A stretch of 17,357 nucleotides of DNA from positions 1-17,357 of IMG/VR virus record IMGVR_UViG_2663762648_000006; one strand, given 5' to 3'. Positions 6,830 through 11,783 of this stretch are shown here, one piece after another. Numbering within the stretch: position 1 is the first letter of the stretch; the number at the start of each line of letters is the position of its first letter. Under the pieces are notes generated by a model. It had not been told where the DNA came from and ran no database searches. It worked only from the letters and a program-made list of their open reading frames with translations. The position numbers were made by a program, and so were the translations under genes. Source of the stretch: a virus. Lineage: Duplodnaviria > Heunggongvirae > Uroviricota > Caudoviricetes.

Positions 6830-6904
<75 letters not shown>

Positions 6905-6907
6905 ATA

Positions 6908-6983
<76 letters not shown>

Positions 6984-6985
6984 AC

Positions 6986-7062
6986 TGGACCGCCACCGGG
7001 GACTCGAACCTCGCACACTCAACTTAAAGGGTTGACGCTCTTTCCTGATGAACTGGTGACGG
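6986..7062 (-). tRNA. Atypical tRNA-like gene (anticodon loop CCTTTAA, nominally UUU; possibly degenerate)
   Basis: 77 nt with encoded CCA and a T-loop TTCGAGT, but C at position 8, C at position 33 and a T-stem mismatch. It lies 1 nt downstream of the tRNA-Ile-like gene. Confidence 0.4.
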
Positions 7063-7063
7063 T

Positions 7064-7139
7064 TGGTGGCCCTTGCTGGATTTGAACCAGCGACCTGGCG
7101 ATTATGAGTCGCTCGCTCTCACCACTGAGCTAAAGGGCC
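7064..7139 (-). tRNA. ileZ: tRNA with CAU anticodon, tRNA-Ile2 (lysidine) type, ileZ-like
   Basis: 76-nt clean cloverleaf: acceptor GGCCCTT/AAGGGCC, anticodon loop CTCATAA, T-arm GCTGG-TTCAAAT-CCAGC, CCA. It closely resembles my recollection of E. coli ileX and of the tRNA carried by Stx-type phages. Confidence 0.8.
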
Positions 7140-8401: not shown

Positions 8402-9457
8402 TCATGCTTTCCACTTCAGGACACCCGAATTTCTCGCGTGCATTAAAAAACGAATCAGCAACAACAGCTGGCTGCCGTGTTTTTCTTCAAAATCTTTTAC
8501 CCCGGCGTGCAGTTCGTTATGACATTTACGGCACAGCGGAATAACAAACAAATCATCAGCCTTTGTTCCCATCCCTCCCAGTCCATGACCAATGATGTGA
8601 TGCGGATCATCTGCCTGATTACCGCACGTCATGCATTTCTGCGTTTTTACCCAACGCGTGTATACAGGCATCTCTTCCCGTTGTGGTTTCTGGCGCTGGA
8701 GATACTGAGCCGGTGACTCCGGATCAACGGCAATGCTGACCACCGTCTTTTCCTGTGGCGGGTTTTGCTGGTGGGCATGAGGCAACGGCGCAAGATTTTT
8801 TGTGCGCTGCTTCAGTATGCTGGTGGCGGTCTGCTCTCCCGGTACGATGTCGCTTTCGCGGTACAAGGAGCGGATTTTTTCCGCACGTAACCCCAGAGAA
8901 CGACGTAATACTGCCTCCGGAAGCGCGTCCGCCACCTGATTGCAGACCGCCCACCAGGATAATTCAGCCAGCGACAATTCCCGCTCCTGCGTGCCATTCA
9001 TTGCATGGCGTATGACGTCAATCATCCATGCTGACAGGTTTTGATGAGCAAGTTGCCCGAGTGATTCGGATGTCTGGTCACGCAACTGGTTGTCGCAGTG
9101 CCAGCACAACACCATCGCGCCGGTACCGTAACGATGTATGACGATTTCACTGTGATGATAGTCACCATGAGGCCACTGGCAGGATTTGACATGACGCAAC
9201 AGCCAGTCAGACAGTGCCCCAGCGCCGCCAGCAGCACGAATCACCCGCTCATCGCTGAAAAATGGCAGTAATGATTTATCCTCCGCCAGCGGCTGGCGAA
9301 CGGCAGGGACGACTCCGGACGGCAGACCGCGCATGCTTTTCGGTTCAGGCTCCACCAGCACTCGAGGGTTATGAAATACTTGCATGGATTCACGGCCCGG
9401 CCTAAGGACCACCAGCCCGAGTTCCGGTACCAGAACAGGTCGAAGTAATATCCGCAC
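8402..9457 (-). CDS. DUF968-like prophage protein with C-terminal HNH/zinc-finger-like motif (YdfU-like)
   Basis: The long ORF reaches 9529, but a GTG at 9457 has GGAGG 5 nt upstream and sits 1 nt after the upstream gene's stop, so I prefer that start. The C-terminus carries CMTCGN...HHIIGHGLGG...CRKCHNELH. Confidence 0.65.
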   Translation of the reverse strand: MRILLRPVLVPELGLVVLRPGRESMQVFHNPRVLVEPEPKSMRGLPSGVVPAVRQPLAEDKSLLPFFSDERVIRAAGGAGALSDWLLRHVKSCQWPHGDYHHSEIVIHRYGTGAMVLCWHCDNQLRDQTSESLGQLAHQNLSAWMIDVIRHAMNGTQERELSLAELSWWAVCNQVADALPEAVLRRSLGLRAEKIRSLYRESDIVPGEQTATSILKQRTKNLAPLPHAHQQNPPQEKTVVSIAVDPESPAQYLQRQKPQREEMPVYTRWVKTQKCMTCGNQADDPHHIIGHGLGGMGTKADDLFVIPLCRKCHNELHAGVKDFEEKHGSQLLLLIRFLMHARNSGVLKWKA

Positions 9458-9458
9458 G

Positions 9459-9737
9459 TTACCTCCAGATCCGTTGCTGGTATGTGCGGGATGGGCGCGG
9501 TGGGCGTTCGGAATAAGGGAGCCTGACATAGATTATCCAGTGACGATAATCGAGGCTGAGGGCTTTCTTAATCTCGTATCCGCGTCTGCGATAGTTATGA
9601 ATTAGCCATTCGGCCTGTTCTTCAGTACATGGGTCATGCTGGAACCAGTCAGATTTGAAAGTGCGGGAACGCCGCCCGTGCCTGCTGGCAAAGACGGCAG
9701 AATCATCAGAATTGTGTAATTTGGTATCGTGCGCCAT
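9459..9737 (-). CDS. Hypothetical nin-region protein (92 aa from internal ATG)
   Basis: The ORF extends to 9818 with an alternative start; the first ATG is at 9737. Same strand and tightly packed with the DUF968 gene. Confidence 0.45.
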   Translation of the reverse strand: MAHDTKLHNSDDSAVFASRHGRRSRTFKSDWFQHDPCTEEQAEWLIHNYRRRGYEIKKALSLDYRHWIIYVRLPYSERPPRPSRTYQQRIWR

Positions 9738-9814
9738 CGGTTGTCTCTGCTGGCGCAGCAGGTGCCAGTTGTTCAGGCTGGCGTGCGAATTGTAAACCAG
9801 AATGCCAGGAAAAA

Positions 9815-9843
9815 ACAAAACCCGCCGAAGCGGGTATGCTAAA
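9815..9843 (-). terminator. Rho-independent terminator after the lipoprotein gene
   Basis: Minus strand reads CCCGC-TTCG-GCGGG followed by TTTTGTTTTTT. The same motif recurs at the 3' ends of both hok copies. Confidence 0.65.
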
Positions 9844-10033: not shown

Positions 10034-10426
10034 CTACTGCCCTGTTTTAACGAAGTTTTTAAAGGAAACAACTGCCTGATAGGGGTTTGGTTGACAGCCA
10101 AACATATTATCGCAAAAAGGCTTGATGAAAATTCTTGAGGATCCATCTTCATTTGGCATTTTACTCACTTGATAAGCGAGGAATGGACTATTTGGAGAGG
10201 GATTATAAGTGGAAATTAGCGTGTCTGTCGCCGTTTGAATTTTCCATGAGGAATTATTAGCCAACCAGAATTGCGCTCGTTTCCAATAAAAGTCACATTG
10301 CTTTTCATCATTACATGTTAGTGGCTTCATTGCTTCTGCTTTCAACGCTGGATCGACCTTTGCTGCACACCCTCCCAACATTACTGTTGCAATCATTACA
10401 CCTGCGACTAAAACAAGTTTCTTCAT
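10034..10426 (-). CDS. Secreted lipoprotein (moron); possible superinfection-exclusion or surface-modifying factor
   Basis: 130 aa with a signal peptide and lipobox (VMLGGC), four further cysteines, and markedly low-GC DNA. It has its own terminator. Confidence 0.7.
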   Translation of the reverse strand: MKKLVLVAGVMIATVMLGGCAAKVDPALKAEAMKPLTCNDEKQCDFYWKRAQFWLANNSSWKIQTATDTLISTYNPSPNSPFLAYQVSKMPNEDGSSRIFIKPFCDNMFGCQPNPYQAVVSFKNFVKTGQ

Positions 10427-10569
10427 CTCCCTGCCCCATCAATAAAAGTTCGGTTCTCTAATAACTAGAGTTAATCAACGGAAAAAACGCCGAAGCGGGT
10501 TAAGTGCGGGTGCGTTGAGGATGCCTGACACATCAGAGGTGGCGAGGGATTTCTCCCCCGCCAGGTCTC

Positions 10570-10782
10570 TTACTCCTCAGGTTCGTAAGCTGTGAAGACA
10601 GCGACCTCCGTCTGGCCGGTTCGGATTCGTACCTCGCAGAGGTCTTTCCTCGTTACCAGTGCCGTCACAATGACGGTTAAACAGATGACGATCAGGGCGA
10701 TTAACATCGCCTTTTGCTGCTTCATAGCCTGCTTCTCCTTGCCTTTCGGCACGTAAGAGGCTAACCTAGATTTGCCGTTCAT
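10570..10782 (-). CDS. hok: Mok/Hok-family type I toxin, copy 1 (Hok/Gef-like 51 aa from the internal ATG at 10725)
   Basis: C-terminal 51 aa (MKQQKAMLIALIVICLTVIVTALVTRKDLCEVRIRTGQTEVAVFTAYEPEE) matches Gef/HokC as I recall it. AAGGAG precedes the internal ATG. The in-frame upstream extension resembles MokC. Confidence 0.85.
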   Translation of the reverse strand: MNGKSRLASYVPKGKEKQAMKQQKAMLIALIVICLTVIVTALVTRKDLCEVRIRTGQTEVAVFTAYEPEE

Positions 10783-10978
10783 AGATTGAGCCTCAGATTA
10801 ATGTTAAGCGTCTTGCAGCAATTCTACTTAAGTATTTTTGATTCTATTCCGGCACCATCTAAAACTTCAAACGCGTTGAAAATAAAAACAAAAACCCGCC
10901 GAAGCGGGTTAAGTGTGGGTGCATTGAGGATGCCTGCCCCATCAGAGGTGGCGAGGGATTTCTCCCCCGCCTGGTCTC

Positions 10979-11191
10979 TTACTCCTCAGGTTCGTAAGCT
11001 GTGAAGACAGCGACCTCCGTCTGGCCGGTTCGGATTCGTACCTCGCAGAGGTCTTTCCTCGTTACCAGTGCCGTCACTATGACGGTTAAACAGATGACGA
11101 TCAGGGCGATTAACATCGCCTTTTGCTGCTTCATAGCCTGCTTCTCCTTGCCTTTCGGCACGTAAGAGGCTAACCTAGATTTGCCGTTCAT
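10979..11191 (-). CDS. hok: Mok/Hok-family type I toxin, copy 2 (identical protein)
   Basis: Translation is identical to copy 1 and lies in the second unit of the tandem duplication. Confidence 0.85.
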   Translation of the reverse strand: MNGKSRLASYVPKGKEKQAMKQQKAMLIALIVICLTVIVTALVTRKDLCEVRIRTGQTEVAVFTAYEPEE

Positions 11192-11387
11192 AGATTGAGC
11201 CTCAGATTAATGTTAAGCGTCTTGCCGGACGCGTAATGTTAACTGGGGCTTTTCTCTATCTGCCTTTGGTGTTCATGCCTGAGGCAGATAGCCTCAAGCA
11301 CCCGCAGCAATTCTACTTAAGTTAGATAAGCTTTTCTATGGTATTCTCTCAGCGTCCCGTAAATACAGTCTCGGCTCATCATTTTTA

Positions 11388-11645
11388 TCACAGGTGCGAG
11401 GAAAATATATAGCGCCCTCCATCAAGCATAACGAAATACATTTTCCATTCATCGCCATTCCTCAATTTAATACGAAGACTTTCCCCGCAAGTGTATTTAT
11501 TAAACAACTGTTCCGATGTGCTAGTAAGAGGTATTTTTACCGTTATTACAACTACTGCCCCACCATTTAACTCTCGAAGTTCAGCATCCGCATCCACAAA
11601 AGATGAATAAATGTTATGATCTGGGTAATCAACAATTAACTGCAT
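11388..11645 (-). CDS. Hypothetical protein, low-GC orphan
   Basis: 85 aa from an ATG with AAGGAG 5 nt upstream. Very AT-rich DNA; no recognisable motif. Confidence 0.5.
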   Translation of the reverse strand: MQLIVDYPDHNIYSSFVDADAELRELNGGAVVVITVKIPLTSTSEQLFNKYTCGESLRIKLRNGDEWKMYFVMLDGGRYIFSSHL

Positions 11646-11783
11646 ATTCACTCCTTAAATATAGCAACTAAAACAAACAACGATTTAACAGTAGGAATTG
11701 TTTTTATAACATATGAACGGTGCAAGATCTATCCAGATGAAGCCTCCCCTCACACCCCCGTCTCATTACATGCATTTACTATC

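Follow-up and report, generated by a model that had tools for sequence, protein, structure and literature searches.

An apparently canonical hok/sok locus in tandem with a probable leader-deleted derivative in a prophage

A viral stretch of 17,357 nucleotides (IMG/VR record IMGVR_UViG_2663762648_000006; hereafter the window) carries two hok toxin genes in direct repeat, one of which has 80 bp more than the other in its regulatory region. Which of the two copies has been altered, and what does the difference mean for the control of the toxin? An earlier note, made from the sequence alone, had taken the longer copy as the changed one. We consider it highly probable that the locus instead consists of one canonical hok/sok unit (copy 2) and a leader-deleted copy 1 derived by recombination, with the origin and regulation proposed below.

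Two copies and the direction of the 80-bp change

Two 70-aa open reading frames (ORFs) lie on the minus strand, at 10570..10782 (copy 1) and 10979..11191 (copy 2). Their proteins are identical, both toxin ORFs match Pfam HOK_GEF (PF01848) with 81.6 bits against a cut-off of 22, and both are contained in a direct repeat of 300 nt with 97% identity and a spacing of 409 bp. The earlier note had described two identical toxin genes in direct repeats about 409 bp apart. The likeness is not due to chance, as only 8 of 333 shared positions differ, and the two mok frames are separated by a single synonymous difference at position 10669. The 19-mer GCAGCAATTCTACTTAAGT (repeat family D4) recurs at 489 bp rather than 409 bp, so copy 2 is longer by the 80 bp previously noted. 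This extra segment aligned to 11224-11303, equivalent to the 11226-11305 given earlier because a GC at the boundary leaves the placement ambiguous. Another repeat, at 9810-9835 (family D2), was considered as a third hok relic and rejected, being only a generic CCCGCTTCGGCGGG terminator after a 130-aa gene in surroundings without hok homology.

Judged by its sequence, copy 2 (10886-11338) is a complete, canonical locus of the hokD/hokW-sokW type, with the following features:

10886..11303, minus strand: full-length hok mRNA of about 418 nt; +1 is G11303, to which position 1 of the RF01794 model is aligned
11310..11338, minus strand: predicted hok promoter, TAGAAA-17-TAGAAT (promoter scan, 9/12), with its -10 box 6 nt upstream of the inferred +1
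11224..11303, minus strand: the 80-nt segment, hok mRNA +1..+80 (RF01794 match, alignment to relatives, genome count)
11292-11303, minus strand: tac, within the 80-nt segment (element definitions from PMC9841398)
about 11244-11254, minus strand: putative ucb/anti-SD, within the 80-nt segment (same definitions)
10979..11191, minus strand: mok ORF, 70 aa, of which the hok ORF (10979-11134, 51 aa, HOK_GEF match) is the in-frame 3' part
11183..11253, plus strand: predicted Sok antisense RNA of about 71 nt, with coordinates from the sokW misc_RNA annotation of phage 933W (L001 877-947)
11148..11176, plus strand: putative Sok promoter within mok, TTGCCT-17-TAACCT, a weak consensus match identified by visual inspection ahead of the SokW start as transferred, and not reported by the promoter scan
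10917..10929, minus strand: fbi element CCUCAAUGCACCC, complementary to tac (tac x fbi duplex, -21.5 kcal/mol)
10893..10910, minus strand: intrinsic terminator AACCCGCTTCGGCGGGTT followed by a T-run (terminator scan)

RF01794, the curated hok-leader/sok model, matches copy 2 over its full length (model 1-157/157, at 11303..11129) with 111.7 bits against a gathering score of 59, which, along with the HOK_GEF match, bears out the earlier assignment to the mok/hok type I toxin loci. On this mRNA the mok AUG falls at +113 and the hok AUG at +170; in the 933W record, mokW and hokW are annotated with a common stop codon. The MFE fold pairs nt 1-12 (tac) with nt 375-387 (fbi), and nt 1-60 in isolation form the tac/ucb stem at -30.3 kcal/mol. 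A duplex of ucb with the mok SD is possible at -10.4 kcal/mol but is missing from the MFE fold, in which the SD pairs locally. The predicted Sok is convergent to hok mRNA and overlaps the start of mok. Its region folds at -29.9 kcal/mol into a long stem-loop preceded by 14 unpaired nt at the 5' end and followed by UUUU, the architecture and energy of the annotated SokW. The Sok start site, both promoters and transcription of copy 1 are read from consensus matches and from GenBank annotation, and the 933W sokW annotation that supplied the Sok coordinates may itself be a prediction.

Alignment within the window by itself fits an insertion and a deletion equally, and an inverted repeat, CTATCTGCC / GGCAGATAG, does occur within the segment, as the earlier note had observed. 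To this extent the evidence permits the reading given there, in which copy 1 is original and copy 2 has gained an insertion with a palindrome in it; a small mobile element or one like REP would be an example. The repeat, however, is the core of a 21-nt repeat, 76% complementary (11245-11265 / 11282-11302), and its nature is that of the conserved tac/ucb hairpin. The segment holds this hairpin (nt 1-59) as well as the 5' arm of the Sok-target stem, while its opposite strand supplies the last 30 nt of Sok, namely the hairpin 3' arm and U-tail. It corresponds to positions 1 to ~70 of RF01794, and its first 12 nt complement fbi at the 3' end of the same mRNA. It is found in every single-copy relative aligned (933W hokW-sokW, E. 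coli 1303 and CAU16175). Of 5,426 complete E. coli genomes, 4,131 carry the intact leader as one contiguous piece, with 8,901 occurrences in all; the closest prophage, that of E. coli 702/18, carries a single hokD in the equivalent position. The short form is absent from all collections searched. Nor does the segment have the marks of a mobile or REP-like insertion (presence at a minority of sites, no relation to RNA elements, a target duplication), its boundary repeat being merely 2 to 4 nt of microhomology. We regard an insertion into copy 2 as exceedingly improbable. The 80 bp are the ancestral 5' end of hok mRNA, and copy 1 is the altered copy, from which +1..+80 have been deleted. The segment does lie in the hok leader, where the earlier note had placed it; the putative Sok promoter, which was also expected there, falls within mok instead, with the same sequence in the two copies.

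What copy 1 keeps and what it has lost

The features of copy 1 are those of a truncated derivative:

10570..10782, minus strand: mok ORF, 70 aa, with the hok ORF at 10570-10725
10783..10814, minus strand: leader remnant, +81..+112, with the 3' arm of the Sok-target stem and the mok SD (GAGG), identical to copy 2
10815..10833, minus strand: hok promoter remnant of 19 nt; -10 TAGAAT (10821-10826) retained, -35 gone
10739..10814, plus strand: truncated sok; promoter and first 41 nt (10774-10814) intact, hairpin 3' arm and U-tail deleted
10508..10520, minus strand: orphan fbi CCUCAACGCACCC, with no tac partner in cis
10482..10501, minus strand: weak 3' hairpin, a 1303-type allele (terminator scan and fold)

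Positions 10735-10814 are identical to their counterpart in copy 2. The equivalent 71 nt of Sok in copy 1 fold at just -7.5 kcal/mol, and the terminator scan found no plus-strand terminator in 10400-11450. The fbi of copy 1 reaches -6.8 kcal/mol in its best duplex with the first 60 nt of its own transcript, versus -21.5 kcal/mol with a tac, and it is unpaired in the MFE folds of copy 1. Against RF01794, copy 1 reaches 43.7 bits and so falls short of the gathering score of 59; the alignment is confident only from ~75 to 157, and the first half of the model ends up, with low posterior probability, on spacer sequence that is unrelated to it. As an autonomous hok/sok module, copy 1 has the toxin and mok ORFs, but it stays under the RF01794 threshold and has neither tac nor a complete Sok. 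Read by eye, a GAATAG now stands at 17-bp spacing from the copy 1 -10 box.

The 3' end of copy 1 had been described as a degraded version of that of copy 2. It is indeed weaker, in its terminator stem (GGCGTTTTTT versus GGCGGGTTTTT in copy 2) and in the 3'-end folds (-11.4 versus -20.6 kcal/mol), and the terminator scan reports a site in copy 2 only (10910..10893). This is not decay after duplication, however. The copy 1 terminator and downstream flank (10400-10501) are identical at 102/102 positions to the single-copy loci of E. coli 1303 and 702/18, and the hairpin is the normal allele there.

Mosaic parentage and the origin of the tandem

The two copies differ in parentage. The outer flanks and copy 1 are of the E. 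coli 1303 type, while the 3' end of copy 2 and the spacer are of the Qin/K-12 type, with 10834-10910 identical at 75/77 positions to CAU16175 and at 74/77 to K-12 but at 24/77 to E. coli 1303. Four features mark the region in which the types meet:

10834..10892, minus strand: spacer between the copies, 57 bp, the normal downstream flank of a Qin/K-12-type hokD (parentage alignment)
10870..10841, minus strand: promoter-like site TTGAAG-18-TAGAAT within the spacer, facing copy 1 (promoter scan)
10824..10833, minus strand: duplication junction J1, a 10-bp microhomology, ACTTAAGTAG, common to the Qin-type downstream flank and the 1303-type hok promoter
10811..10818, minus strand: deletion junction J2 at 10814/10815, where the base before +1 is joined to +81, with a CTGC microhomology in the 1303-type parent

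ACTTAAGTAG has exactly 2 occurrences in the window versus 0.01 expected by chance, and J1 and J2 are 19 nt apart. Searches that detect near-exact matches found neither junction in the 5,426 E. coli genomes, GTDB species representatives, IMG/VR or JGI metagenomes, with Logan and ENA assemblies sampled at 10 places. A 41-nt junction query gave no match; it replaced a 73-nt query that the microhomologies had made leaky, with 31-nt and 36-nt partial matches in thousands of genomes. All 15 loci fetched are single-copy; the sample of contigs encoding the exact 70-aa protein, 10 places from 24 blocks read out of 18,190, showed one copy at each. Among the collections searched, the copy 1 arrangement therefore appears to be a private, strain-specific rearrangement. 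We infer an origin by illegitimate or template-switch recombination between a 1303-type and a Qin-type prophage sequence, each bearing hok. Joining would have taken place at the 10-bp microhomology, with a second junction at a 4-bp one, in one complex event or in several successive events.

Other routes to the same arrangement have to be weighed against this one. The 489-bp spacing of ACTTAAGTAG is the product expected of unequal exchange between both short repeats, and recombination among lambdoid prophages is frequent, so that a plain 489-bp tandem duplication may have come first, followed by a separate 80-bp deletion and by gene conversion or recombination with a second prophage. Plain duplication, though, needs one flank type behind both copies, and the flanks differ; independent junctions merely 19 nt apart would be unlikely by chance, and an intermediate with J1 and without J2 was not found in the collections searched. 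We think this stepwise course rather unlikely, while granting it an appreciable chance. Far less probable is an artefact, in which the tandem would be an assembly or library chimera of two hok-bearing prophages in one genome. The difference in parentage between the halves, the number of such loci in E. coli genomes (up to 10, median 1 to 2) and the occurrence of the arrangement in this window alone among the collections searched would all fit a chimera. Yet the joins are microhomologies of 10 bp and 4 bp only 19 nt apart, assemblers use longer overlaps, and reads must supply every junction-crossing k-mer. Moreover, on either side of the tandem the flank runs collinear with the same prophage type (1303, 702/18), which argues for an internal addition and not for an end-to-end chimera. 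Recombination between a 1303-type and a Qin-type sequence remains our preferred account of the tandem.

Relation to known systems and proposed regulation

The locus shares its architecture and its lambdoid prophage position with hokW-sokW of the Stx2 phages 933W and Sp5 (Sakai prophage 5); with our 906-nt query, the best places in the records of 933W and VT2-Sakai share 92.9% identity. In hokW-sokW, mok is in frame with hok, as here, and the Sok stem-loop is identical to that of copy 2, including a 16-nt extension beyond the Rfam consensus. MokW/HokW and the window protein are 89% identical over 70 aa, with differences in the first five residues and the C-terminus. The 3' flank and terminator of 933W are unlike those of the window, and its one copy stands without a leader-deleted partner. 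Experimentally, hokW-sokW is a type I toxin-antitoxin system that depends on RNase III and Hfq and assists phage release (PMC8621323). Toxicity of Hok and its neutralization by Sok through RNase III have been demonstrated for this homologue (PMC8621323).

The 51-aa toxin is 100% identical to that of hokD (relF) in the Qin prophage of E. coli K-12, whose 3' UTR, terminator and 57-bp downstream flank are of the same type as those of copy 2 (10834-10910, 74/77). K-12 hokD is also a natural precedent for a hok gene without its upstream regulatory RNA elements. Located behind relBE, it is missing all of the sequence before the hok SD and with it mok, sok, tac and ucb, whereas in copy 1 only +1..+80 are gone, and mok, the Sok promoter and 41 nt of both Sok and its target remain. 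Defects in chromosomal hok loci were reportedly described by Pedersen and Gerdes in 1999. In hok/sok (parB) of plasmid R1, mok is in another reading frame than hok, unlike mok in the window, which is an in-frame extension, and R1 hok/sok is plasmid-borne while the window locus is in a prophage. The tac/fbi pair and mok-hok coupling of R1 are present in copy 2, as are a candidate ucb anti-SD and a predicted Sok with 5' tail and stem-loop; this comparison was made through the Rfam alignment and the R1 numbering quoted in PMC9841398, from which similar element positions follow. HokW and R1 Hok are 44% identical (PMC8621323).

With the roles of tac, fbi, ucb and other hok/sok elements taken from PMC9841398, copy 2 would behave like hokW-sokW. 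Its mRNA would be locked by tac-fbi pairing, with the mok SD masked by ucb, then activated by 3' processing and neutralized through Sok and RNase III. The mRNA of copy 1 would have no tac-fbi lock and no ucb anti-SD pairing, and no proper Sok would be made from this copy. If transcribed, from the promoter-like site in the Qin flank or from the remnant -10 box, its mRNA would be born open, translatable and accessible to Sok. This expectation draws on the R1 literature, since our folds failed to distinguish the locked state from the open one. Across full-length copy 2, 3'-trimmed copy 2 and two candidate copy 1 transcripts, the mok SD, the AUGs and the Sok-tail target had nearly equal values of predicted accessibility, and we dropped these values as evidence on the unlocked state, as they barely differ between constructs. 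The mok SD was paired in a local SD/dcb hairpin in every construct folded, and the MFE of 3'-truncated copy 2 did not cleanly reproduce the published tac/ucb stem, the 5' end having re-paired with the new 3' end.

The earlier note had proposed that the two copies are regulated differently, which agrees with the absence of +1..+80 and of a complete Sok from copy 1. Its further suggestion, that one copy may be decoupled from antisense control, fails for either copy. Because copy 1 retains 41 nt of perfect Sok target, trans control by the neighboring antisense RNA is possible, and the duplex modeled between copy 2 Sok and copy 1 hok mRNA (-84.6 kcal/mol) suggests that the former could control the latter. 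With an mRNA open from the start, copy 1 would depend on this Sok in trans, and its own terminator-less Sok-like transcript may perhaps also contribute.

Whether copy 1 acts at all is a closer question. The same structure would result if copy 1 were a transcriptionally silent relic without effect and the locus worked as a single hokD/hokW-sokW, a reading to which we give considerable weight, if somewhat less than even. Copy 1 has other sequence in place of its native -35 box (GAATAG at 17-bp spacing), the strong copy 2 terminator lies directly upstream, leader-less hok genes persist harmlessly, as in K-12 hokD, and an arrangement private to this window gives no sign of selection for copy 1. 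On the other side, the imported flank brings a promoter-like site 20 bp upstream whose score of 9/12 matches that of the native promoter, the TAGAAT -10 box is kept, and an intact Sok promoter that has lost its terminator leads one to expect some new plus-strand transcript. At the opposite extreme, copy 1 could be a naturally unlocked hok mRNA that needs no 3' processing and is checked only by its neighbor's Sok, the two copies forming a two-speed module. We find this unlikely. Were it true, the terminator-less Sok promoter of copy 1 would read antisense into the fbi and 3' end of copy 2, and a drop in Sok, such as that reported for hokW-sokW when the prophage is induced, would release Hok immediately from copy 1 and later from copy 2. 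Most likely, copy 1 is a by-product of recombination that is close to neutral, rather than a second module by design.

The copy once taken as odd is thus the normal one, and the locus belongs to the well-known prophage hok/sok (hokD/hokW-sokW) system; the hok tandem opens no long-standing question. Its leader-deleted copy illustrates microhomology recombination among the many hok-bearing lambdoid prophages of E. coli. Copy 1 also offers a ready-made natural mutant, in which tac, ucb and the Sok terminator are gone and mok, hok and the Sok target are kept, useful for testing whether loss of the anti-SD and of the 5' lock yields a constitutively open, trans-controlled toxin mRNA.

The two toxin copies and the direction of change

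The window carries two copies of a mok/hok toxin unit, both matching the Pfam HOK_GEF family (81.6 bits). As the earlier note had described, their products (70 residues) are identical and the genes lie in direct repeats (300 nt, 97% identity, spacing 409 bp); over the C-terminal 51 residues the identity to K-12 HokD is 100%, and the two occurrences of the 19-mer GCAGCAATTCTACTTAAGT are 489 bp apart. An extra 80-bp segment reported in copy 2 is likewise present, and alignment of the copies places it at 11224-11303, equivalent to the 11226-11305 of that note because a boundary GC leaves placement ambiguous. The inverted repeat seen within it (CTATCTGCC and GGCAGATAG) forms the core of an imperfect 21-nt inverted repeat.

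Features of the two units
10570-10782, minus strand: copy 1 mok/hok, 70 aa (ORF calling)
10979-11191, minus strand: copy 2 mok/hok, 70 aa (ORF calling)
11338-11310, minus strand: copy 2 hok promoter, TAGAAA-17-TAGAAT (promoter scan)
11183-11253, plus strand: predicted copy 2 Sok antisense RNA (transferred sokW coordinates)
11148-11176: putative Sok promoter, TTGCCT-17-TAACCT, inside mok (read by eye)
10870-10841: promoter-like site in the imported flank, TTGAAG-18-TAGAAT (promoter scan; score equal to that of the native hok promoter)

The features had been correctly seen, but the proposed direction, an insertion in copy 2, is reversed. Rfam model RF01794, named "sok" but as matched here the hok-strand leader, matches copy 2 over its full length (1-157 of 157, 111.7 bits, E = 4e-25, at 11303..11129); the supposed insertion lies within this match and accounts for model positions 1 to ~70. 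Copy 1, at 43.7 bits, falls short of the gathering score (59), with confident alignment limited to positions ~75 to 157. When both copies were aligned with four single-copy loci (phage 933W hokW-sokW, E. coli 1303, E. coli CAU16175 and K-12 hokD), the 80 nt were present in all intact ones; K-12 hokD is cut back far beyond them. Among 5,426 complete E. coli genomes, 4,131 contain, at 8,901 places, an unbroken match to a 128-nt query that takes in the 80 nt with their two borders. On these sequence comparisons the insertion reading is rejected; the 80 bp are therefore ancestral, and copy 1 bears a deletion.

RNA elements kept and lost

We place the hok mRNA start at G11303, from RF01794 position 1 and the copy 2 promoter; the deletion corresponds exactly to +1 to +80 in one of its equivalent placements. 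In full-length R1 hok mRNA, fbi is the pairing partner of tac, and ucb is an anti-Shine-Dalgarno (SD) sequence sequestering the mok SD; after 3' processing, a tac/ucb stem and SD-dcb pairing give a translatable, Sok-binding form (PMC9841398). In the minimum free energy (MFE) fold of the 418-nt copy 2 transcript, nucleotides 1-12 (GGGUGCUUGAGG) pair with 375-387 (CCUCAAUGCACCC), a duplex of -21.5 kcal/mol, and nucleotides 1-60 form a tac/ucb hairpin (-30.3 kcal/mol), which is the palindrome of the earlier note. Two substitutions found in copy 2 alone, at 10937 and 10939 in the 3' untranslated region (minus-strand GAUGGGGCAGG; GTGTC in other loci, GTGGC in K-12), create a UGGGGC that pairs with ucb GCCCCA in the full-length fold; this modeled pairing may be chance or an additional means of holding ucb.

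The 933W GenBank record annotates mokW and hokW, which share a stop codon and hence a frame, and the sokW RNA, whose coordinates were transferred to copy 2 (offset 10306). The predicted copy 2 Sok combines a single-stranded 5' tail of 14 nt, a stem-loop of -29.9 kcal/mol and a UUUU tail, and is like SokW in architecture and fold energy. At 11207-11243, the Sok stem-loop and hok target stem, the window locus and 933W share a 16-nt extension relative to the Rfam consensus (cgcguccggcaagacgc), which sits at the hairpin tip and lengthens the stem. The Sok promoter had been expected within the 80 bp; the putative promoter lies outside, within mok, in a stretch identical between the copies. What the loss takes is the last 30 nt of sok, the hairpin 3' arm and U-tail.

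Copy 1 is without tac, ucb, the native -35 box and the Sok hairpin/terminator; the fold energy of the corresponding stretch is -7.5 kcal/mol, and a terminator scan found no plus-strand terminator in 10400-11450. Because tac is absent, fbi is orphaned, its best duplex with the transcript's own first 60 nt being -6.8 kcal/mol. Retained are the -10 box, mok, hok, the mok SD, the putative Sok promoter and 41 nt of perfect Sok/Sok-target sequence, including the complement of the Sok 5' tail; the duplex of copy 2 Sok with copy 1 hok mRNA is -84.6 kcal/mol. By the R1 model, the copy 1 transcript would be unable to lock, would fold straight into the open form, translatable and Sok-binding, and would be held harmless by Sok in trans, contributing little to the stable mRNA reservoir. 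Predicted SD accessibility is low in every construct folded, so that the folds speak neither for nor against the open form. On this analysis, we consider it about equally probable that copy 1 is expressed but trans-controlled and that it is effectively silent.

Parentage and occurrence of the tandem

The 57-bp spacer between the copies is ordinary flank from downstream of Qin/K-12-type hokD, and the segments differ in their closest relatives.

Best matches of segments
Copy 2 upstream flank: E. coli 1303, 98/98
Copy 2 terminator and spacer to the duplication junction: CAU16175, 75/77; K-12, 74/77; 1303, only 24/77
Copy 1 coding sequence: 702/18, 213/213; 1303, 212/213
Copy 1 3' untranslated region: 1303 and 702/18, 68/68
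Copy 1 terminator and downstream flank: 1303 and 702/18, 102/102

The 10-mer ACTTAAGTAG ends the Qin-type flank and also overlaps the -10 box of the 1303-type hok promoter; the window contains exactly two occurrences, where chance would give 0.01, and this 10-mer is the duplication junction (J1, 10824-10833). The deletion junction (J2, 10814/10815) lies 19 nt beyond, at a CTGC microhomology of the 1303-type allele. A single repair event with multiple template switches, involving two prophage sequences that each carried hok, may have produced the tandem. A stepwise history is possible, but we infer that one event fits the sequence arrangement best, because two microhomology junctions 19 nt apart bracket differently derived DNA. 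Recombination substrates are abundant: a single genome can carry the leader at as many as 10 places. Overall, 4,159 of the 5,426 complete E. coli genomes contain it. The Qin-type flank at 10834-10870, also downstream of hokD in aligned Qin-type loci, contains the TTGAAG-18-TAGAAT site, and its ATAGAA...ACTTAAGTAG motif loosely resembles a hok promoter; judging from sequence, the site may serve the next gene (rem) as promoter or be what is left of an older hok promoter.

Neither junction has a match in the 5,426 complete E. coli genomes, GTDB species representatives, IMG/VR or JGI metagenomes, and the hits among INPHARED phage records were just partial or were joined from two pieces on single copies. 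Both the exact 70-residue protein, with 18,190 indexed blocks in the assembly collection, and its leader are extremely widespread, and hok is single in all 15 loci fetched. The closest prophage, in E. coli 702/18 (coverage 84%, identity 98%), has a single hokD with neighbors as in the window. A recent survey of Hok diversity reports prophage enrichment and makes no mention of tandem copies (bioRxiv 10.1101/2025.08.07.668861).

Neighboring genes and relation to known systems

The flanking minus-strand reading frames gave no Pfam match at E <= 0.01.

9459-9818, minus strand: 119 aa
10034-10426, minus strand: 130 aa, with a lipoprotein-like N-terminal signal (MKKLVLVAGVMIATVMLGGC)
11388-11651, minus strand: 87 aa
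11784-12299, minus strand: 171 aa

Farther away, the Q antiterminator gene and the lysis genes flank a phage tRNA cluster (6830-7139, minus strand), in which ARAGORN calls four genes, Gly-TCC, Thr-TGT, Lys-TTT and a CAT-anticodon tRNA (Met per ARAGORN, Ile per the 702/18 record), of which Rfam recovers only three at gathering score.

The 3' hairpin of copy 1, called degraded in the earlier note, is indeed weaker than that of copy 2, but the copy 1 terminator region is that of single-copy loci, to which it is identical. This 1303- and 702/18-type end (10482-10501; 102/102 in single-copy loci) has a stem of just 3 bp, and the next clear terminator is at 9810-9835, after the 130-residue gene. By sequence, mRNA from this type of allele may read through into that gene, which, if true, would shift the start of 3' processing.

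Three features that define an autonomous module are missing from copy 1: its leader scores below the Rfam cut-off, tac is gone and Sok is incomplete. As an example of regulatory-region loss, K-12 hokD comes closest, although its breakpoint is unlike that of copy 1. Copy 2 has the features of hok/sok membership that sequence and folding could assess; a ucb-SD duplex could form in it, and in the MFE fold the SD is paired locally. The hokW-sokW locus is a type I toxin-antitoxin system dependent on RNase III and Hfq, giving faster lysis and doubled phage release upon induction (PMC8621323). By homology, copy 2 should behave likewise, and the locus is an instance of a known system, carrying a structural variant private to it.
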